From an uncultured archaeon (GTDB lineage Archaea; Asgardarchaeota; Thorarchaeia; Thorarchaeales; Thorarchaeaceae), in contig CAYYQL010000004.1 of assembly GCA_964473825.1 (NCBI GenBank), positions 1 through 64,000 of the forward strand: a stretch of 64,000 nt of DNA, given 5' to 3'. The notes under the pieces were generated by a model. It did no database searches and was not told where the DNA came from. It worked only from the letters and a program-made list of their open reading frames with translations. Shown here piece by piece: positions 54,032 to 64,000 of the stretch (positions are counted from its first letter, which is position 1; each line of letters begins with the position of its first letter). The position numbers and the translations under genes are program-made.

Positions 54032-54583
54032 GTGAAGCTGATCACTCTCGCCCGGGAGGCAGTTAGGATACTGAAGGAGAGTGGGGATGATGGTATTCGT
54101 AGCGACGAGGTCGCTGAATTTCTTGATGTCCCCAAGAGACGAATCTATGATGTTGTGGCTGTGCTAAGAGCATTGGAAACGGTCTCAACGACACGCAAGT
54201 TCGATGGTACGACTATCACATGGATTGATCGTTTCGAAGACTACATTCCTCGAAGTGAATATGATGCTGTTCGAAAGCAGCTGGATGAGGTCCTTGCTGC
54301 GAAACGAGAACTTCAAGTTCAGGTTGCCGAACAGAAACAACAACTCAGAAACATACGTGGCAGATTCAAGCATGATGGGGTGCCTGTCGAGAAGACCGAC
54401 AAGACCCAGTTCAATACCACTCAGCTCCGTGTGCGATGCCACTCGGGAACTGGTTTCAAGAGAGTGGTGGATTCAGGGGTGGAAGTACTCATTGAGACTG
54501 AGCAACCCGGCATGACTGTGGATCCGACTGAAACGGAATATGATGACAGTCGTGAGATACTGAGAAGCATACAGAAGATGTGA
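54032..54583 (+). CDS. E2F/DP-like winged-helix transcription factor with coiled coil
   Basis: KRRIYDVVAVL (RRxYD recognition helix), wing ending in ITW, a heptad coiled coil, then a beta-rich segment. Confidence 0.8.
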   Translation: MKLITLAREAVRILKESGDDGIRSDEVAEFLDVPKRRIYDVVAVLRALETVSTTRKFDGTTITWIDRFEDYIPRSEYDAVRKQLDEVLAAKRELQVQVAEQKQQLRNIRGRFKHDGVPVEKTDKTQFNTTQLRVRCHSGTGFKRVVDSGVEVLIETEQPGMTVDPTETEYDDSREILRSIQKM

Positions 54584-54961
54584 CTACCGCAATCTGATTG
54601 TGACTTGGCTTCCCCGTCGAACACTCTCCAGCTCATCTAGCAGACTGTCGGGGGATTTTACACTTCCAAGTAAGTTGACGGGGCTGAATGTCTTCATGTC
54701 CCTCACATAAATACAGAGCGAGTCCCCGAGGGGCATATATGCTACCTGTTCTCTCTTGACTTCCTTCGTGGCCTTTACATTACCTTTGCCGATTCCGAGA
54801 GTGATTTTCATCTCGCCCTTGATGAAGGCTGCCTTTCCTTGAATGGGCATTTTCGCTTTCATCTCTTCGACAATCAGGGGACCAAGAACTCTGTCGAGTA
54901 CTACGTCGAGCTTAAGCCCCCCTTCAAACTCGAGTACGATATTCACATCACTCTCGCTCAT
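54584..54961 (-). CDS. Cyclophilin-like fold protein (TM1367/DUF369-like)
   Basis: VAYMPLGDSLCIY...SPVNLLGSV pattern. Confidence 0.75.
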   Translation of the reverse strand: MSESDVNIVLEFEGGLKLDVVLDRVLGPLIVEEMKAKMPIQGKAAFIKGEMKITLGIGKGNVKATKEVKREQVAYMPLGDSLCIYVRDMKTFSPVNLLGSVKSPDSLLDELESVRRGSQVTIRLR

Positions 54962-55039
54962 GATTCCACCAAAGGTGATACCAGGAATCCGCTATTAAAA
55001 CTCTCCCCATTCTCTTCTGAAAATGCTTAATTGGTGCTC

Positions 55040-56197
55040 ATGGAGTATACTAGTAGGAGTGATTCGAGGCTGCCACTAACACGTCTAGAAGTTGCATTTG
55101 TTGTTGACACGACCGGGTCCATGAAAGACGACATCAACGCGGTGCGCGACAGTCTGTTCGACATCGTCGATGACATCGTCAAGAAGACTTCGGAACTGGA
55201 GATTCGCTTTGCCGTAGTATCGTACAGGGATCATCCTCCTGAGGATAGGACCTATGTGACTGATGTCTTCGATTTCACTGACAATGTGAAGGACATTCAC
55301 CGCCGTATAGGCCGACTGAATCCGTCCGAGGGAGGCGACACTCCCGAAGCTGTTGCCGATGGCCTCGCCGATGCGAGAAGACGGCTTAGCTGGTCGCGTG
55401 ACGCCTACAAGATCTTGCTGTTGGTCGGTGATGCCCCCCCTCACGGAAGAAATTACAATACTCTAGGGGACGACCATTGGCCGGATGGTTGTCCTGAAGG
55501 CTTGGATCCAAGGGATGAGGTCAGAAAGATGAAGCGTGAGCACGGAACGAGTTTCTTCCTGTTTGCCTGTGGATGCAATCCGTTGGTTGAAGACTCATTC
55601 AGATCTATAGCCGAATCCATTAAGGGTGGGAAATACTACTCTCTGGTGGAGGCTCACCAACTGCCCATAGCTATCCTTGAGATTCTAGAGGGTGTGAGTG
55701 ATCTTATCGAGGGCGATAGACGAGTACTTGACATCTACAGAGCTAATGATGGTTCCTTTGATATCGCTGAGGCGGCCGCCCAACTCGGAATGGAACTGAG
55801 AGAGATGAAGACCTCATTGTCGCGTCTGCTGGAACTGGGTAAGATCTCACGGTGGCCAAGAGGTCGTCCTTTGAGTCATGATCGCCTTGGAGTTGAGGTG
55901 GTCCTTGGAGATATTCCTTCGGCCATTCTTCCAGGAAGGGCCTTCAATTACGAGATCCGTGCGAAGAATCCTAGCAGAACCACCGTGGGGATACGAATAG
56001 TCATATCTCTGGTTACCTCCGAAGGTGTCTCTGAGGTCACAAATGAGAACCATGACATTGCACCGCGAAGTGACAGGATTCTCAAGCTGCGCTTGACCCC
56101 CATGGTGGACGTCCCTGGAAAGGCGACAATCGGTGTTGAAGTTCTTCATGGCTCTATGTCAATAGAAACAGCAACATATCCTGTAAGGATTCACTGA
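55040..56197 (+). CDS. vWA domain + winged helix + Ig-like domain protein
   Basis: MIDAS DTTGS, YRDH, GGDTPEAV and GDAPPHG; HTH DGSFDIAEAAAQLG...LSRLLELGKI; beta-sandwich tail. Confidence 0.85.
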   Translation: MEYTSRSDSRLPLTRLEVAFVVDTTGSMKDDINAVRDSLFDIVDDIVKKTSELEIRFAVVSYRDHPPEDRTYVTDVFDFTDNVKDIHRRIGRLNPSEGGDTPEAVADGLADARRRLSWSRDAYKILLLVGDAPPHGRNYNTLGDDHWPDGCPEGLDPRDEVRKMKREHGTSFFLFACGCNPLVEDSFRSIAESIKGGKYYSLVEAHQLPIAILEILEGVSDLIEGDRRVLDIYRANDGSFDIAEAAAQLGMELREMKTSLSRLLELGKISRWPRGRPLSHDRLGVEVVLGDIPSAILPGRAFNYEIRAKNPSRTTVGIRIVISLVTSEGVSEVTNENHDIAPRSDRILKLRLTPMVDVPGKATIGVEVLHGSMSIETATYPVRIH

Positions 56198-56199
56198 GG

Positions 56200-57369
56200 G
56201 TGGGAGAACTGGAGATGCAGGCAATCCGAGGGAAGGACCAAAGAGGAATATCATTTGTCAGGCCAGAAGACTGGCTGTCAGATGATAAGGTCGCCAGTAT
56301 CTCCTGTCAAGGTCGCACCGTCTACACCGACATCAGAACGGCCCAGGCAGTACCCTTAGGCCATATCGTGATTGACTCCAAGTTATATGACAGCCTCTCG
56401 TGTTCAGGCAAAGATGGAGTCGAGGTCATCCCAGAGAGTATAGCGCCATCGGTCTGCAAGACTCTCACGATTGAAGTTCAGTCTCTTGCTGGAATAGGCA
56501 GCCGCAGGGTCAAAGAGGCAGTTTCCGAACGAATCCGCGACTTCGGTCCACATCTTGATGACCTCCTAGTCACAGAGGGTCAACAACTCAATCTACAGTC
56601 ACTCAATCTTCGTCTCACAGTTCTGGGTCTCTCCCTGTTTGATTCGCGCGGCACGATTGGACGAATCAGATGGCCTCGCTTGGAAAAGATTGAACTAGTT
56701 GGGGGCGAGACTCCCGATATGTGCGCATTTGTGATTCTGGTTGAAATGTCGCGCATCAGAGGTCTCCAGGATGAGGATGATGCTGCACAGTCTGGTGCGT
56801 GGGCCTCCACTCCGTTCTCTGAGATCTTGATACGTCTTCTTGCAGGTCTGAGAGCATTCTCTGCATCAAATCCAACCAACGTCGTTGTGTCAGTGATTGC
56901 ATATTCTTCTCAGACAGATATCTTCTTGACATACGAGCCGGATTCTGGACAGAAACGAAAATGGTCCGAGATTGATATGGAAGGTTATCTTGAAGCCCTG
57001 CAGAACTGGCTTGCAGACCAAAAGGGCATTCATGATTCGCAGCCTTCTGATCCAGGACTGGCACTGCAGACAGGTTTTGCCGTCGTAGATGAGATGAGAG
57101 ATGATGGTCTGTACCCCGTCTGTATCGCGCTGCTCTCAACAGGTCGGTATTCGATAGGACAGAATCCTGTTTCTGTGGTGCGTCGACAACCCGGTAATAT
57201 CACCACGTTTTCGCTCGGGCTTGAATCTGCATCTGATGAAGATATGCTCAAGGCGATTTCAGAAGCTGGACGGGGGAGAGCAATCATGATGTCTAGGATA
57301 ACTGACATGCAATTGATGGTTGAGGACATGATTCAGATGATGGGGCGTGAGGTGGCTGCAGATGACTGA
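56200..57369 (+). CDS. CDC48-N-like + degenerate vWA protein
   Basis: Aligns by eye with 63136-64000. vWA elements VSVIAYS, DPGLAL, LLSTG, SLGL and LKAISEAGRG are present; the MIDAS is lost. Confidence 0.7.
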   Translation: MGELEMQAIRGKDQRGISFVRPEDWLSDDKVASISCQGRTVYTDIRTAQAVPLGHIVIDSKLYDSLSCSGKDGVEVIPESIAPSVCKTLTIEVQSLAGIGSRRVKEAVSERIRDFGPHLDDLLVTEGQQLNLQSLNLRLTVLGLSLFDSRGTIGRIRWPRLEKIELVGGETPDMCAFVILVEMSRIRGLQDEDDAAQSGAWASTPFSEILIRLLAGLRAFSASNPTNVVVSVIAYSSQTDIFLTYEPDSGQKRKWSEIDMEGYLEALQNWLADQKGIHDSQPSDPGLALQTGFAVVDEMRDDGLYPVCIALLSTGRYSIGQNPVSVVRRQPGNITTFSLGLESASDEDMLKAISEAGRGRAIMMSRITDMQLMVEDMIQMMGREVAADD

Positions 57370-58561
57370 AGAATTCATAGAACTGCTTCAGACCATGCAG
57401 TCCAATGGCACACTTGAAGGGTTCCTCTGCTCCCAGATTCCAAGCGGCAGACTATCCTCTGGATGGATTGAGAACGGTCTTTTGTTCACGAGTATGGAGA
57501 CTTCACTTCGTTCAGAAGCAGTCACAACCACGTACATGATTCCAGCAGACCGATTTGTACGGTTCTTCAAGCAGCTGGATTCCTCGGCCAAATCGAGCAT
57601 ATGCTTCAGCATCACGGGCCCGGCCGGTCTTCGAGAGGAGAAATCGCTCGTGTTGGTTGGCGAGGTATGTCAATCAGGATCCCCCCAAGTTCTGGCAGCC
57701 AGATTCTCTTCGTCGACTGCCACAGAGATATGTCAATTCATTGCTTCTCAACTGCTGCGCATACCATCGGATGAGGATCACTGTGAGCCTTGTTTAGATT
57801 ATCTGGAAGAACTCAGAGAGTTGGTGTTGAGCGAGGAGACCAGTGCGGCCTTGTGCCTGAGCATCCCCAAAGCAACCACACTCGTAAGAGAGGTATTCTC
57901 GCAGGATTCTGATCAAGAGTCCATTGAAGGGATTCTACTGCGTTTGGGTCAGATATCTCAGCTTCAATCGTTTGCAACCAAGGCTGTCACTTGGCTTGAC
58001 CGAACAAAGAAGTTCCAGGGCCAATCGAGCGAGGCGGCAGCAATTGTGTTACGAACGTCTCACCGACTCCTCCTCTGTCTGTGGGACGGACCAAGAGGCG
58101 TAGTCTCTTTCGCTGACATGACAGGTATGTCTCTTGAGAAAATGTCAGTTTCGTTGCTCCTTCCCCTTTGGATTGTTAAAGGTGAGACGATGGATCTTCA
58201 GGACTATGCCCCTCGTGTTCTCATTGATAAAGAAAATGAGGGCATCAAATCTGGGGAAAGGGATGCGACCCCTATACGGCGCGTCGAGAGTTTCGAAACC
58301 ATATCTCAAGAACTTGCTGCCTTAGAAAGTCGTTTGAACAGTGTTTCCCTTAGAGACCTCAGCAAGAGAGTGATGGATTTGGAGGATCGGTTTGATAGTA
58401 TCAAAAGGTTTACACAGAATGCTTCGTCTGATGAGAAGCGAATCAGTGCTGCTTATTCGAATATCGATGACCTTATATCTCGTCTGGAAAAAATATCTGG
58501 GCGGCTTGATAAGATAGCAGACGACCTCGAGATAGTCAGCGATCGACTGAAGGAGGAATGA
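57362..58561 (+). CDS. Hypothetical protein with C-terminal coiled coil
   Basis: GAGGTG ribosome-binding site; overlaps the previous stop; heptads in the last ~90 aa. Confidence 0.75.
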   Translation: MTEEFIELLQTMQSNGTLEGFLCSQIPSGRLSSGWIENGLLFTSMETSLRSEAVTTTYMIPADRFVRFFKQLDSSAKSSICFSITGPAGLREEKSLVLVGEVCQSGSPQVLAARFSSSTATEICQFIASQLLRIPSDEDHCEPCLDYLEELRELVLSEETSAALCLSIPKATTLVREVFSQDSDQESIEGILLRLGQISQLQSFATKAVTWLDRTKKFQGQSSEAAAIVLRTSHRLLLCLWDGPRGVVSFADMTGMSLEKMSVSLLLPLWIVKGETMDLQDYAPRVLIDKENEGIKSGERDATPIRRVESFETISQELAALESRLNSVSLRDLSKRVMDLEDRFDSIKRFTQNASSDEKRISAAYSNIDDLISRLEKISGRLDKIADDLEIVSDRLKEE

Positions 58562-58839
58562 CATACTTGTCGGGTTTAGAGGATCAATTGGAGCAGCTCC
58601 GAACGAAGCTGATGATGATTGAGTCTCTCGGCAACCGGATTAAGGACCTCGAAAGACATCTTGGGCCGATCGAGAATACCAGGGCTGAGAACCAGAGTGA
58701 TGATGTATACGAGTCAAGAATCTGGCGAGAACTTGATGAGCTACGTGGGTTTGTCGAAAGGCTATCTATTGCAGTCACTCAACTTGAATCTGAAGTTCAG
58801 ACGATGGCTTTGTCTACAAGTCATCTTGAAGATGATTGA
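58558..58839 (+). CDS. Small coiled-coil protein
   Basis: ATGA overlap, GGAGG ribosome-binding site and two heptad helices. Confidence 0.7.
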   Translation: MTYLSGLEDQLEQLRTKLMMIESLGNRIKDLERHLGPIENTRAENQSDDVYESRIWRELDELRGFVERLSIAVTQLESEVQTMALSTSHLEDD

Positions 58840-61445
58840 CCCCTGTCTAAACGGCGAAGAGCACTTGCTAACTCCTCTACCAGTTTCTGGACTGAGAGTG
58901 CATCCAGACTCACCGTACTTCTGTTCGCTGTCCTTGGCGAGTCAACGGAGCTCCGTGTTTCGAGTCTTAGAAGTTCAAAGCATTGGCTAGGAAGCACATC
59001 GATGAATCCCTGAGCCGCGTCATCTGAAGTGTCCCCTGAATCTCCGATGAGAATTGCCAGTGTCGGGCGCGACATACCAAAGTCATCTGTGTATTCGCCA
59101 ATCGCCCGATACGAGTTGGCAATTGCCTGGTCAGATTTCTCCTCTTGTAGGGCATCAAGTACGAATAGCTTCAGCGCGGTCTTCACCTCAGGGGACTCCA
59201 AATCTCTGTCAAAGTCGACGAAATCCTGAATGTCTTGGCCGTGTTGAATAGAGAACTTCCTCAGCCGCTCTCCGGCTATGCAGAGACCTAACCTTCCCTC
59301 TGACCTGTTCTCCTCTAATGATCCAAGGATGAGCAGTGCCGATACTACAGCTCCTTGGAAACGAGATGTATACGCTTCCGAAATGTCGAGAAGATCTGAG
59401 TAGCTTCCTAACCCCTGAAGGATGTCTTTGAGTTTCAAGGAAACAGAATATGGAGCCTCTATCCTCAAATCCTTGACAGTCATCTGTCTACTGAGCGCGA
59501 TACAGATTATGACATCAACATCCAGAAGGAATTCAGGCTGTGTGACAACTATTTCTGCCTTTGTCAAATCTGCCGTTTCGCCTGTCTTTATGGGGGGGTT
59601 CGTTCTGATCAGCTCAAGCGACAGACTTTCCCGAGTTGTAAACGGGTACACCTTACTGCCCCTTCCCAGAAGAAGCGGTCGGATAGTTTCTTCTGTCTGG
59701 TTTGATTGCAGATGAAGATATGACGACATCTCTCCTGGATCTACATTTTCTTGCGCTCTTGTGACGAAGATAGCTCTGTCAACCTTGGTTATGTTCTCCT
59801 GATATTCGGTTAGATCTATCTCCTCGCCAGACTCCAGACCGAGGCCTCTTCGATCGTCATCGGAGATAACTGCTGTTCTAGGTGCTATATCATGGCCCGG
59901 CAGACTTCTTGCCACCCACCATTGCCCCTTTCTCTGACTCTGGGCCAGAAGATTGTCTGCTGTCCTGCCAAGCGCGTCGATGTTCACATCAGCAAGACGC
60001 AGATATCCGCGCGGTACATCGCCGGTATCGAGTCGATATCTCAATGCAGCCAGTAGCTCCTGTGGTCTTCTAACGTTGAGGCATTTGGTCAGAGCGGTAA
60101 CATACGCGTTGAGTTGAATTGGCGAATCAAACACGATTGACGAAGTTCTAGAGTGCGATTTCACGAGGGTTCTCAAAGCGTTCGGGTCTTCAGAAACATC
60201 CGCCACATCAAACCGAGGACTCCAGGTGCAGATCTCAAGGCTACTGTTCGGATTCTCTCTTACAATCAGTGTTGTCCCACTCTTTGCCTGTTCATCCAAG
60301 AGCGTAAGGACATAGGTTGAGGTGTCAACTGTCCCTGATTCTTCATCATACAAGTAGTTGAACGATTCGAGTCTGTAATCTCTGCTAGAGGTGAGTATCT
60401 TAATCACTCTCTGCAGTTCTTGCATGGCAGGCCTACCTAGATGCCCTTCTGCAACTACACCCCCCTCTCGATCTTGGTATTTGAGATGTGGCGGTCTGAG
60501 TGGGATAACGGACAGAATGTTTCCGCTGAGCATTCGCTGGATGTCTTCTGGTGATGCATCGAGGTTCTTGCTCAGAAGATAGCTGAGTATCTCAGGTATT
60601 CCATCCCCCACGTTGGTCTCAGGGTAGTTCGTTCCAAATATTATGCGTTCAGACCAGCGGTTTCCGAGCTTCGTTTTCAGGGCTCTAATCAGTGAAGAGA
60701 GAGAAACAATGGTTGCCCCTGCTGTCAATATACGTGAATTGGGGATCTCAACAAGTTTTTCGATTTTATCAGCCCACTTCTTATGGTCGAGAACGTGAAG
60801 GATTACTGCTGGAGTTCCCAGCTTGGCGTCTTTCAGGAGGATGAGCCACTTCAGAACCTCATCCAGTTCATCAGACTCATCGAGTTGGATGAGTATTGCC
60901 CTTCCCCTCTTAACTAGACGAAGAATGTCGTTCCGGTATGCACCCTCCATCGTCTGCGCGATTTCGTTTGCTCTAACTGAGCTAGTGAAGCCCTCCTGCG
61001 ATCCTCTCTCCCTGGTCTCTTGAATTCTGAAGAATCGTCCTCCGTATTGGCCGTCTCTCGTTAGTTCTCTCACCATTCTTGAACTCTTCTCTTGGTTCCT
61101 CCTTGATAGATCCAGACCTCCAACGCTAAGAAGTGGTTTGACGGAGAACTGATCGACAAACCATTCGGTATCTCGTGCTCCAGCTGGTCCTCCGCACAGG
61201 CGAGCCAAGAAAGGTGGTTTCTTGAGATGGGCATAGGCCCTTCGAGGTAGATAACGGTACGAATGCTTGTAGTTGGCAACCAAGGAAAGAAGCTGTCCCT
61301 CCACTCGCGACACGTATGCAAGAGCTCTGTCAGGGTCGAAAGTCTTCTCGTGGCTGTTGAGGCTGACTACACCGAGCTGCATACAACCATCTACGACAAG
61401 GAACCGATAGATCTCTCTTGTCTTGAGGTCTTCAACAACCAGCAT
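58821..61445 (-). CDS. Fusion protein: inactive amidohydrolase-like barrel + linker domain + CDC48-N-like + degenerate vWA
   Basis: The N-half aligns with 61591-63078 (FGTNYP...YLLS...DIQRMLSGNI); the C-half aligns with 63136-64000. Confidence 0.75.
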   Translation of the reverse strand: MLVVEDLKTREIYRFLVVDGCMQLGVVSLNSHEKTFDPDRALAYVSRVEGQLLSLVANYKHSYRYLPRRAYAHLKKPPFLARLCGGPAGARDTEWFVDQFSVKPLLSVGGLDLSRRNQEKSSRMVRELTRDGQYGGRFFRIQETRERGSQEGFTSSVRANEIAQTMEGAYRNDILRLVKRGRAILIQLDESDELDEVLKWLILLKDAKLGTPAVILHVLDHKKWADKIEKLVEIPNSRILTAGATIVSLSSLIRALKTKLGNRWSERIIFGTNYPETNVGDGIPEILSYLLSKNLDASPEDIQRMLSGNILSVIPLRPPHLKYQDREGGVVAEGHLGRPAMQELQRVIKILTSSRDYRLESFNYLYDEESGTVDTSTYVLTLLDEQAKSGTTLIVRENPNSSLEICTWSPRFDVADVSEDPNALRTLVKSHSRTSSIVFDSPIQLNAYVTALTKCLNVRRPQELLAALRYRLDTGDVPRGYLRLADVNIDALGRTADNLLAQSQRKGQWWVARSLPGHDIAPRTAVISDDDRRGLGLESGEEIDLTEYQENITKVDRAIFVTRAQENVDPGEMSSYLHLQSNQTEETIRPLLLGRGSKVYPFTTRESLSLELIRTNPPIKTGETADLTKAEIVVTQPEFLLDVDVIICIALSRQMTVKDLRIEAPYSVSLKLKDILQGLGSYSDLLDISEAYTSRFQGAVVSALLILGSLEENRSEGRLGLCIAGERLRKFSIQHGQDIQDFVDFDRDLESPEVKTALKLFVLDALQEEKSDQAIANSYRAIGEYTDDFGMSRPTLAILIGDSGDTSDDAAQGFIDVLPSQCFELLRLETRSSVDSPRTANRSTVSLDALSVQKLVEELASALRRLDRGQSSSR

Positions 61446-61590
61446 TAATCGTTCCCTCTTATCACTACGTATTTACTCTGGGCTCTACAGATATATGCAT
61501 AATGCGGGTGTTTAAGGAGCAATTCTTTGGAACGTACAGTAACAGTTTATGAGGGTCATCTACGTGCATCTCTACGGAGAGAAACTATCG

Positions 61591-63078
61591 ATGCTCATCG
61601 TCCGAGCTGTAGAGAATATCCCAGAACATGGTATCAAGCGAGACGACGAGTTCTCTTTGTATATAGTCGATTCTCACCATCATATGGGCCGCGAAGGTGG
61701 CCATCAGAACACCCCTTCTTCTGCCTACGAATTCTACACGTTGCTCTGGTTTGAACTGAAGAGCGCCGCTGAGAAGTACATGGATGCTGACTCTCTTCTT
61801 TTCGAACCGGTTGGCACAACACCTGTTCCTCTGACAGAGCAAGTACTCCAGGCAAGGGAATCTTGGTCATCTATGGGCCATGGTTGGCTTGTGGACCGAA
61901 CCGTCGTGTTTCCCTTTACTGATGACTACGCCAAATCAGGAGTGCCCGATTCTCCATCGTTCAGTGTATCTAATAACAAGATCTCGGGTTGGACCAGCCG
62001 TGCTCCACATTCTAGTCGTCTCATCGGCTTCGGCAGAGTCGACCCCACTGATGCTAGATATGGGAAACCCAACATCGCGGTGAGCGAGATCGAACGATGC
62101 CGAGATGTGCTAGGCCTTAGAGGTCTCAAACTACATCCACTTGCCCAGTTGTTTGTTGAGGAGATTGAGAATGAATCGACACGGGAAGTTGTTATGCGTG
62201 CTACCGAACTCTTCATGCCCATAGTTTTCGACACAAGGAATTCTAAGACTGTTGAACGAATCATGCGTCTAACTGAGGATATCATATCGACAGAGAAAGT
62301 GGGGATTCCCACAGTCATACTGGCTCATTGTGGGATGAGTCCCGGGAGTGAGTTTCTCTACGACGCCCTGTCAAGAACGTCTCTTTACGGTGACACATCA
62401 TCGCTACATGGAAATGATGTACCGGTGCTCTTCGAGACTGCCCACGAGCGGATCAAGTCTGATGCCTTCCGATGGTCTGAGAAGCTTCTATTTGGAACTG
62501 ATTATAGTTTCTTGACTACACAGGCGATAGATGTCATATTGTACCTCCTATCGAGAGACTTTCCCGGCACTCCAGCTGATATTCAAAGGATTCTCGGCGG
62601 CAACATCATGGGAGTCATCAACAGACCGTATCACACTAGGCATTACAGCAAAACTAAGCCTCGTCATCTCATCTCGACGAACTACCAGACGTCTCGTGAT
62701 GTAATCCAGAGGGCTTTGTGCAAGCAGCTGTCTGATGGTGATGTTGAGCTTCTGTCCATTGACTATATGATTCCACCCAAGCATACCTGGCCTGATATAC
62801 CAACGTCTAAGATGGGAAATGGGTTTCATCTCGACAACCTCTTCATCACCGTGCGTGCTGCATCGTCTGATGCTGTGATACACATCTGGTTGCGTCGTCT
62901 CCCTGATGATACAATGAGTCTTGCGTTAATAGACAGTGGGAGTGAACTCTCACCACGGACTCTTGAACTATCATCAGAAACAATGCCTCTGGCGCTAGAA
63001 GAGTGGCTCTTCGAGAAAGTTGAGAGGGCTAATGAGCATCAAGAATTGAACTCCCTCCTAGAACAGGCTCTTGCATAG
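61591..63078 (+). CDS. Amidohydrolase_2 family metallo-hydrolase with extra C-terminal domain
   Basis: DSHHH, GLRGLKLHP, ILAHCG and LLFGTDY motifs. The start is set at MLIV by alignment with the paralog and a GGAG upstream. Confidence 0.85.
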   Translation: MLIVRAVENIPEHGIKRDDEFSLYIVDSHHHMGREGGHQNTPSSAYEFYTLLWFELKSAAEKYMDADSLLFEPVGTTPVPLTEQVLQARESWSSMGHGWLVDRTVVFPFTDDYAKSGVPDSPSFSVSNNKISGWTSRAPHSSRLIGFGRVDPTDARYGKPNIAVSEIERCRDVLGLRGLKLHPLAQLFVEEIENESTREVVMRATELFMPIVFDTRNSKTVERIMRLTEDIISTEKVGIPTVILAHCGMSPGSEFLYDALSRTSLYGDTSSLHGNDVPVLFETAHERIKSDAFRWSEKLLFGTDYSFLTTQAIDVILYLLSRDFPGTPADIQRILGGNIMGVINRPYHTRHYSKTKPRHLISTNYQTSRDVIQRALCKQLSDGDVELLSIDYMIPPKHTWPDIPTSKMGNGFHLDNLFITVRAASSDAVIHIWLRRLPDDTMSLALIDSGSELSPRTLELSSETMPLALEEWLFEKVERANEHQELNSLLEQALA

Positions 63079-63135
63079 AGATTGATGCCACCACTCTTTA
63101 TAACGACACAGGCACTATTCAAGACGAATTCGACT

Positions 63136-64000
63136 TTGGAGGCCGCAGCAATAACGAGAAAAATCGAAGTTGAGATTCTGGACGGTGGTAATCAAAGAGG
63201 CTTTGCCCTGCTGAATCCAGAAACCATGAAACAGTTGGATGCTGAGATTGGTTCAATAGTCCTGTTTGAAGATCCTCAGAGCAGTTTCTGGGGAGCAGCT
63301 GAGGTTAGAAAGAATGAGGATCTGGATGAAGGGAAGATAGAGGTCGACACTCTTGTCTTGGAGGCATCTCTCTTGATGGAAGGAGATTTGGTCGATCTAC
63401 AACTCTATGATGAAGATATGATCGCGCTAGAATACGTCGAGTTCGGGCTCAAACCCTTGACCGAGGATGCAAACACTGATGACCTTGTTTCTCGAGCATC
63501 TAAGAGGGTGAAGAGTCTAGAGCAGTTGGTGGGTGGGCGTCTCGTATATCCGGGAATGTCGTTTAGCTGGCCTGAAATGGAAGTTAAAGTTGAGATTCTG
63601 AAGACTCGTCCCTCATTAACAGGCAAGAATTTCGCAAAGCTCGCCTTTGAGGCTCTGAGAGAGAAGACTGGCTACCAATTCAAGACCGTTGGCATTGCTA
63701 GCCCATTCAATGCTATTCTCTGCATTGACACAAGTGGGTCAATGAAGACAACTGATGTACCCGTTCAGGACATAGCTCATGCAAGAGAGGGTCTGAAAGA
63801 TTTGGCTGGTGATAATCCAGAGGTCCATAGTTTTCTGAACCGCTTCGATGAAGGAGCCAGAGTGAGCCGGGCTGAGGCGGCAGCAATGGCTGTCTTGCTG
63901 TATCTGGCAGAGAAAGTTGGGCGAGGTTACGGTGAGAAGGTGGGAGTCATCACGTTCGAAAAAGAAGTGAGCGAGATGACCTTCCTTGACTCCGAGACTG
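63136..64000 (+). CDS. CDC48-N-like + vWA protein with intact MIDAS (partial, runs off the window; not in the ORF track)
   Basis: Manual translation ...NQRGFALLNPETMKQLDAEIGSIV...GKIEVD...EGDLVDL...ILKTRP...AILCIDTSGSM...VGVITFE; open to the end of the window. Confidence 0.85.
   Translation, partial: MEAAAITRKIEVEILDGGNQRGFALLNPETMKQLDAEIGSIVLFEDPQSSFWGAAEVRKNEDLDEGKIEVDTLVLEASLLMEGDLVDLQLYDEDMIALEYVEFGLKPLTEDANTDDLVSRASKRVKSLEQLVGGRLVYPGMSFSWPEMEVKVEILKTRPSLTGKNFAKLAFEALREKTGYQFKTVGIASPFNAILCIDTSGSMKTTDVPVQDIAHAREGLKDLAGDNPEVHSFLNRFDEGARVSRAEAAAMAVLLYLAEKVGRGYGEKVGVITFEKEVSEMTFLDSET

Follow-up and report, generated by a model that had tools for sequence, protein, structure and literature searches.

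The window analysed here is the first 64 kb of the 149-kb contig CAYYQL010000004.1 from a Thorarchaeota assembly of 3.27 Mb, and it closes with six genes across positions 55031-64000, P0006, P0001, P0004, P0002, P0005 and P0007. Three of them had been predicted, from the letters alone, to encode paralogous proteins in which a Cdc48-type N domain is followed directly by a von Willebrand factor A (vWA) domain, as in the N-terminal part of DEPDC5/Iml1, and the cluster had been read as a possible forerunner of the GATOR1 scaffold. The locus raises the question of what such proteins are in an archaeon and with which partners they work. Here, we found that the three proteins are paralogs, that the P0007-type protein defines, by its profile matches, an Asgard-wide family of Cdc48N-vWA proteins without an ATPase, and that in several Asgard families its gene is linked to genes of a metal-dependent hydrolase and a GCS2-like ligase, a linkage that marks a putative, previously undescribed enzyme-adaptor module.

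Pairwise BLASTP among P0001, P0002 and the P0007 open reading frame (ORF) gave nothing significant, so family profiles were needed. Orthologs were gathered from 20 related genomes, and the P0007, P0001 and P0002 families were each aligned and compared by hhalign. The P0007 family matched the C-terminal half of P0002 (residues 460-831) over 368 columns with an E-value of 1.6e-26, and the P0001 family over 367 columns with an E-value of 4.4e-24; the P0001 and P0002 families matched each other over 359 columns at E 4e-12. BLASTP of P0007 against the P0002 orthologs of other genera gave E-values of 1e-16 to 6e-19, and against P0001 orthologs E-values down to 3e-10. These comparisons of aligned families confirmed that P0001, the C-terminal half of P0002 and P0007 are paralogs over both domains, about 360 columns. 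The original prediction had aligned the three ORFs by eye, and it held up well: the motif pairs that it had picked out in P0007 and P0002 were aligned to each other by hhalign, and in each of the three proteins a Cdc48N-like domain passes directly into a vWA domain.

The structure of P0007 was then modelled from a 50-sequence Asgard-wide alignment, which gave a predicted local distance difference test score (pLDDT) of 91.3 and a predicted template-modelling score (pTM) of 0.84. This model replaced a first one built from Thorarchaeota sequences only (pLDDT 63), for which the top Foldseek matches were p97 N-D1 and no DEPDC5 was among the matches listed. In the final model the first lobe forms a double-psi beta-barrel, a second beta/alpha lobe is packed on the barrel, and a vWA fold follows, so the two-lobed N domain of the CDC48/NSF type expected for these proteins is recovered. 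The p97 N domain (5epp_A, 170 residues) was aligned with the model over 186 columns, with a target-normalised template-modelling score (TMt) of 0.71 and a root-mean-square deviation of 4.1 A. At the sequence level, the N-domain profile matched yeast Cdc48 (E 2.8e-7), NSF (1.2e-4) and residues 35-123 of DEPDC5 (4.6e-4), and among the 50 family members Pfam CDC48_N matched 28 and Molydop_binding, another double-psi barrel, matched 22. Like Cdc48/p97/VAT, NSF and PEX1, the Asgard protein therefore joins a two-lobed N domain, recognisable by sequence and fold, to a three-layer alpha/beta domain, but this next domain is a vWA domain with a MIDAS (metal-ion-dependent adhesion site) and not an AAA+ ATPase. 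The N domain is not followed by AAA+ D1/D2 ATPase rings, no Pfam AAA-family model matched any family member scanned, and a hexameric unfoldase role is not implied for the Cdc48N-vWA proteins. The N-domain profile also matched open frames of about 740-780 residues in other Asgard genomes (E 1e-6 to 1e-9), and these are probably Cdc48/VAT ATPases.

We found 124 homologs of P0007 with E <= 0.001, with identities of 64-97% among the 120 listed, and all close homologs that carry a source name were labelled Thor-, Loki- or Promethearchaeota. An exhaustive profile search extended the Cdc48N-vWA family to 602 representatives at E <= 1e-3, the named members coming from assemblies that bear Odin-, Hermod-/Prometh-, Heimdall-, Sigyn-, Hel- and Korarchaeota labels; P0007-like proteins with an invariant MIDAS occur in these lineages. 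The N-domain profile gave strong matches in at least 9 of the 25 sampled Asgard families. The longer relatives scanned carry a ubiquitin domain, a zinc ribbon, a second vWA domain or an amidohydrolase. The MIDAS of P0007 was invariant in 22 Thorarchaeota members, and in 50 Asgard-wide members its D, S and D were invariant, with the second S and the T nearly so. The same metal site (DxSxS...T...D) was absent from every aligned member of the P0001 and P0002 families, in agreement with the earlier claim that only the last of the three copies retains it. P0007 was about 80% identical across genera, where its neighbours were 25-65% identical, and within the genus it was 91% identical compared with 54% for P0001. 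Taken together, these results indicate that P0007 is the conserved member, with an intact metal site that is predicted to work.

The gene upstream of P0007 encodes the hydrolase P0005, in which D41, H43, H45, H196, H260 and D318 were invariant across 13 sequences from several Asgard families; the assignment of these ligand residues to strands is one that we presume from general knowledge of the amidohydrolase family. Among solved enzymes, a single weak match to P0005 was obtained (3nur, E 0.0066). The N-terminal half of P0002 matched P0005 by BLASTP (E 9e-12) and Pfam Amidohydro_2 weakly (E 0.026), and it carries VVDGCMQ and FGTNYPE where the alignment otherwise has DSHHH and FGTDY, respectively. 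Throughout the P0002 family the HxH motif is missing, the catalytic Asp is replaced by Asn, Ala, Ser or Gly, and no member has DxSxS at the MIDAS position. An amidohydrolase pair linked to the three proteins had been anticipated, and it is indeed present in the conserved cluster, one enzyme being of the active type (P0005) and the other dead (the P0002 N-half). The P0002 fusion was present in 74 of the 81 genomes of the order, and fused forms of about 850-895 residues occurred in three other Asgard families. In a maximum-likelihood tree, the fused forms of Thorarchaeota and of other Asgard families fell on one side of a branch with a Shimodaira-Hasegawa-like approximate likelihood ratio (SH-aLRT) of 90, all MIDAS-bearing members were grouped (SH-aLRT 96) apart from the fused forms, and the P0001 family formed a long-branched group of Thorarchaeota only (SH-aLRT 100). 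Since fused forms from several Asgard families share one group of the tree, both events, the fusing of the two genes and the disappearance of the metal sites, are old, and the sequences identify P0002 as an ancient single-chain copy of the hydrolase and Cdc48N-vWA pair in which both metal sites have been lost. We also observed loci at which the fusion is kept in reduced surroundings: in G001 and G007 it stands beside the HEAT-repeat gene, with P0006, P0001, P0004, P0005 and P0007 gone from the locus (L028, L029), and in G037 (L030) the P0005, P0007, HEAT-repeat and CPBP genes are absent and the fusion has the ligase nearby.

For P0001, only three close homologs were found (54-100% identity), and the alignment of its family contains no DxSxS. 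Its neighbour P0004 returned a coiled coil or nothing from Pfam, the PDB sequence search and a protein atlas, none of which showed a roadblock domain, and both P0001 and P0004 were missing from four of the loci examined. In G029 and G019 (L016:7649-8602; L017:11571-12527), the P0001 ortholog is a protein of 317 residues in which the N domain is kept and the vWA half gives way to a coiled-coil tail; a P0004 ortholog of its own was not found at either locus. P0001 is a Thorarchaeota-specific copy without a MIDAS, encoded together with a canonical vWA protein (P0006, the first gene of the run P0006-P0001-P0004) and a coiled-coil protein.

We further studied the gene context of the family in other Asgard lineages. 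A P0005 homolog lies beside a Cdc48N-vWA gene in five Asgard families (f6, f7, f18, f21 and f25), and in four of them (f6, f7, f18 and f21) a GCS2-like ligase of 1000-1400 residues is also adjacent. Adjacent triads of hydrolase, Cdc48N-vWA and ligase genes were found in G084 (f6), G085 (f7), G114 (f18), and G158 and G167 (f21); the f21 triads are encoded on one strand, with a stop/start overlap in G167. On one 3.58-Mb contig of G114 (L040, L041), two separate triads occur together with a fused form of 893 residues and a lone Cdc48N-vWA gene. Three Cdc48N-vWA genes lie on a Heimdall-labelled contig, two of them one gene away from a ligase; a hydrolase homolog was not found there. In Thorarchaeota, the ligase lies about 4.4 kb downstream. 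The synteny sample there comprised 20 loci, 19 of the window's own family and one of a sister family. Within the window's family the order is an E2F-like gene, a cyclophilin-like gene, P0006, P0001, P0004, then P0002 on the opposite strand, P0005 and P0007, followed by a HEAT-repeat gene (opposite strand), a CPBP protease, two more genes and the GCS2-like ligase. The E2F-like and cyclophilin-like genes were syntenic in 20 of 20 loci and P0006 in 18 of 20. The E2F-like regulator that had been pointed out as a neighbour is thus adjacent and syntenic in every locus sampled, but this adjacency says little, as nearly all genes there behave likewise. The HEAT-repeat and CPBP genes follow P0007 in most Thorarchaeota loci, and neither turned up next to the triads in other Asgard families.

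The data show that the three proteins are paralogs, that they have Cdc48N and vWA folds, that metal sites were lost and that the genes are linked in several Asgard families. From this we infer, with a probability of roughly 0.55, that P0007 is the non-catalytic docking subunit of a module formed with the P0005 hydrolase and the giant GCS2-like ligase, an ATP-dependent carboxylate-amine ligase; P0001 and P0002 would be pseudo-subunits that serve as scaffolds or regulators. The Cdc48-type N domain would take up a ligand, peptide or protein, in the way that Cdc48-N holds cofactors, and the MIDAS metal would bind an acidic side chain or a carboxylate. On the docked substrate, to judge from the enzyme families alone, the ligase would form an amide bond and the hydrolase would remove it. 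P0001 and P0002 would associate with the active proteins as pseudo-subunits; the P0002-type fusion implies that hydrolase and adaptor touch. A hetero-oligomer of one active and two pseudo-vWA subunits had been proposed before, and part of it was reflected in the complex prediction: P0007 with P0001 scored 0.56 compared with 0.00 for the best control, the runs agreeing on at least 67% of contacts and the partner having a pLDDT of at least 80. Of 80 solved complexes 58 reached the mark for this score, as did 2 of 110 mismatched pairs, but only 7 of the 80 scored 0.60 or below, along with both of the passing mismatches, so the prediction lends weak support to a P0007-P0001 complex.

Several points weigh against this proposal. 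If family members tend to self-associate, that alone could account for the weak complex score, and a small-molecule pathway would fit the enzymes equally well. The GCS2 match of the ligase in this genome (E 0.0011) is below the Pfam cut-off. Synteny in the Thorarchaeota family is general and takes in unrelated genes (E2F, cyclophilin-like, DUF92), which makes adjacency there a weak argument; the linkage in other Asgard families is the stronger. The paralogs, moreover, do not form an obligate trio, since the dead fusion is all that remains in some genera (G001, G007) and others have neither P0001 nor P0004.

The resemblance to DEPDC5/Iml1 bears directly on the choice between readings. When the P0007 model was searched against the PDB by Foldseek, DEPDC5/Iml1 chains took ranks 1-7, 10, 11 and 13 (9o5e_H, 9xzy with tandem DEPDC5, 9v0j_C, 9o5a_B, 8fw5_A, 7t3a_A, 8ae6_W, 8adl_W, 7t3b_A and 9h4q_X), ten of the top 13, with E-values of 5e-14 to 8e-11, query-normalised template-modelling scores (TMq) of 0.36-0.42 and 420-497 aligned columns. 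No solved protein matched the whole chain better, and because these chains top the search for a high-confidence model, the DEPDC5-like architecture is real at the level of fold order, an N-terminal domain (NTD) running directly into a SABA domain; the two have been likened to Sec18/NSF and to Sec23, respectively (PMC8534245). However, p97 N-D1 stood just behind (E 8e-12 to 1e-9, TMq 0.27-0.32). As D1 is no vWA domain, so near a rank for p97 means that overall alpha/beta similarity accounts for much of the Foldseek E-values. A proto-GATOR1 scaffold, in which true homologs of the DEPDC5/Iml1 NTD-SABA unit organise longin/roadblock proteins and small GTPases in archaeal nutrient signalling, would draw on these ranks, on the N-domain match to DEPDC5, and on the NPRL2-like proteins reported from most Thorarchaeota genomes in a preprint that names no DEPDC5 homolog (10.1101/2020.10.19.343400). 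The N-domain sequence signal, however, is limited to the barrel and for DEPDC5 does not exceed that for human p97 or NSF; a vWA-only profile had no DEPDC5 among its best 60 matches in the PDB, and PDB sequence searches with the P0001-family and merged Thorarchaeota profiles gave no DEPDC5 match. Pfam IML1 (PF12257) matched none of the six cluster proteins and none of the 50 family members at E <= 1; its best match in the genome lay elsewhere, at contig C5:98051-98488 within an ORF of 578 residues without a Pfam family (L055:295-2031), and was at noise level (E 0.11, 12 bits), with 4 of 14 control genomes also matched at that loose threshold. P0007 and DEPDC5/Iml1 (Sea1; GATOR1/SEACIT) share the same domain order over about 430 residues and the lack of an ATPase, but P0007 ends about five residues past the vWA domain, with the SHEN, DEP and C-terminal domains absent, and it has a full and invariant MIDAS. 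Its conserved gene neighbours across families encode enzymes, the hydrolase and the ligase, and not NPRL2/3 or Rag proteins; no longin, roadblock or Rag/GTPase gene is in the cluster, and Pfam NPR2 had no match in this genome, nor in any control genome either. Thus, of the DEPDC5/Iml1 comparison, the NTD-SABA front half stands as a fold, and the proto-GATOR1 scaffold does not: we regard it as very unlikely, and a GATOR1-like function is not supported. Common descent of the Cdc48N-vWA family and the DEPDC5 NTD-SABA unit is a tentative idea, and it is doubtful, if conceivable, that the Asgard protein is the ancestor of that unit, recruited from a docking subunit of ligase and hydrolase with loss of its MIDAS, a site already lost twice among the Thorarchaeota paralogs.

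The ubiquitin domain of one longer relative could point to a different role, that of a receptor in which a Ufd1/Cdc48-N-like N domain and an Rpn10-like vWA domain pass substrates with a ubiquitin-like tag to Cdc48 or the proteasome. This relative (P0211, 570 residues, L037:265-1977) ends in PF00240 (E 9.4e-6) and has a JAB/MPN gene two genes away on the opposite strand (L037:3174-4004), the P0007 vWA domain scores high against Rpn10 and TFIIH p44/p34, and the Tfb4 Pfam model matches 8 of the 50 family members. Yet bacterial and extracellular vWA domains score equal to or above Rpn10, the ubiquitin fusion is found in one lineage only, and no E1, E2, ubiquitin-like, Cdc48 or proteasome gene is in the cluster or in the triads of other families, so a receptor of this kind seems unlikely to us. 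The intracellular vWA proteins TFIIH p44/Ssl1, p34/Tfb4, Rpn10 and archaeal ArnB/ArnE, the latter described by its authors as the Sec23/24-like core, all lack a Cdc48-type N domain; in ArnB a beta-sandwich is inserted, and there is a helical bundle under phosphorylation control (PMC12852372). The constant pairing and fusion with a metal-dependent hydrolase could also mean that the vWA/MIDAS protein delivers metal to the amidohydrolase or activates it, as CoxE, CobT and ViaA do for their targets, within a small-molecule pathway, and VWA_CoxE matches 17 of the 50 members (best 1.6e-4). The vWA maturation factors known so far act together with AAA+ ATPases of the MoxR type, and none of these is linked here, and we know of no part of a Cdc48-type N domain in metal delivery. 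The wide retention of the dead fusion, which has no metal sites to serve, fits a structural role better, and maturation appears improbable as the function of the family.

For P0007 as the docking subunit of a hydrolase and a ligase, a functional analogy, drawn from general knowledge, is offered by PafA/Dop of the Pup system, in which an ATP-dependent enzyme of the carboxylate-amine ligase fold is paired with a second enzyme that cleaves amides and with a recognition factor that is not catalytic. The Asgard hydrolase differs in being an amidohydrolase with a TIM barrel and not a paralog of the ligase, and no gene of a tag for Pup-like tagging was identified. Among the papers searched, none joins Asgard archaea with vWA and Cdc48, or with Iml1, and none describes such an architecture or module in these archaea. 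If the proposal holds, the module might add an amide-bond modification and take it off again. Of the archaea known, the Asgard group stands nearest to eukaryotes. Reports from this group include longin, roadblock, Rag-like and NPRL2-like proteins but, to our knowledge, no DEPDC5 counterpart. An abundant and strongly conserved archaeal protein that in structure matches the front half of DEPDC5/Iml1 best would be a concrete candidate for the origin of that scaffold. The Thorarchaeota locus also illustrates how pseudo-subunits may arise, in one case as a fused copy without metal sites and in the other as a fast-evolving copy without a MIDAS.

Table 1. Features of the cluster and its surroundings (positions in the window, or on the contig where stated)
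Feature	Position	Strand	Description
E2F/DP winged-helix protein	54032-54583	+	PF02319 E 1e-9; upstream of P0006
Cyclophilin-like protein	54584-54961	-	Upstream of P0006
P0006	55031-56197	+	Canonical vWA, intact MIDAS (DTTGS), no Cdc48N domain; Pfam VWA_4 1.1e-13, VWA 4e-11
P0001	56200-57369	+	Fast-evolving Cdc48N and pseudo-vWA paralog without MIDAS; N-domain profile match 56311-56697, E 1.6e-10
P0004	57347-58561	+	C-terminal coiled coil; start overlaps the end of P0001
P0002	58821-61445	-	874 residues; pseudo-amidohydrolase N-half and Cdc48N-pseudo-vWA C-half
P0002 C-half	58824-60068	-	Residues ~460-874, Cdc48N and pseudo-vWA module
P0002 degenerate MIDAS position	59481-59513	-	VIICIALSRQM, aligned with ILCIDTSGSM of P0007
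P0002 N-half	60471-61445	-	Pseudo-amidohydrolase, paralog of P0005, without HxH motif and strand-8 Asp
P0005	61549-63078	+	Metal hydrolase of the Amidohydro_2 family, complete ligand set; Pfam PF04909 E 1.2e-8
P0007	ORF from 63082 to contig 64440	+	MIDAS-bearing Cdc48N-vWA, 452 residues; first 306 residues inside the window
P0007 Cdc48/p97-type N domain	63160-63684	+	Two lobes: double-psi barrel and second lobe
P0007 MIDAS motif DTSGS	63727-63741	+	Remaining MIDAS residues T342 and D372 outside the window
HEAT-repeat protein gene	contig 64442-65725	-	Highly charged repeat tail; follows P0007
CPBP/Rce1-like membrane protease gene	contig 65847-66710	+	Follows the HEAT-repeat gene
GCS2-like ligase gene	contig 68887-72315		GCS2 match E 0.0011

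A small ORF of 93 residues without a Pfam match (58558-58839, plus strand) lies between P0004 and the 3' end of P0002. Among public sequencing runs, no RNA run was listed with the locus, and the DNA runs were microbial-mat metagenomes from which the assembly may itself derive. P0007 has possible starts at ATG 63085 and TTG 63136. At the junction with P0005 (window 63076-63087, GCA TAG AGA TTG ATG), the P0005 stop codon TAG is followed one codon on, in the same frame, by TTG and ATG codons at which P0007 can start, and this arrangement was kept in all three genomes of the genus (L014:7287-7293; L015:7405-7411). In other genera the spacer between the two genes is about 25-260 nucleotides, and in one genus the ORFs overlap. 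The in-frame TAG could be plain translational coupling, or it could allow read-through that yields a P0002-like fusion.

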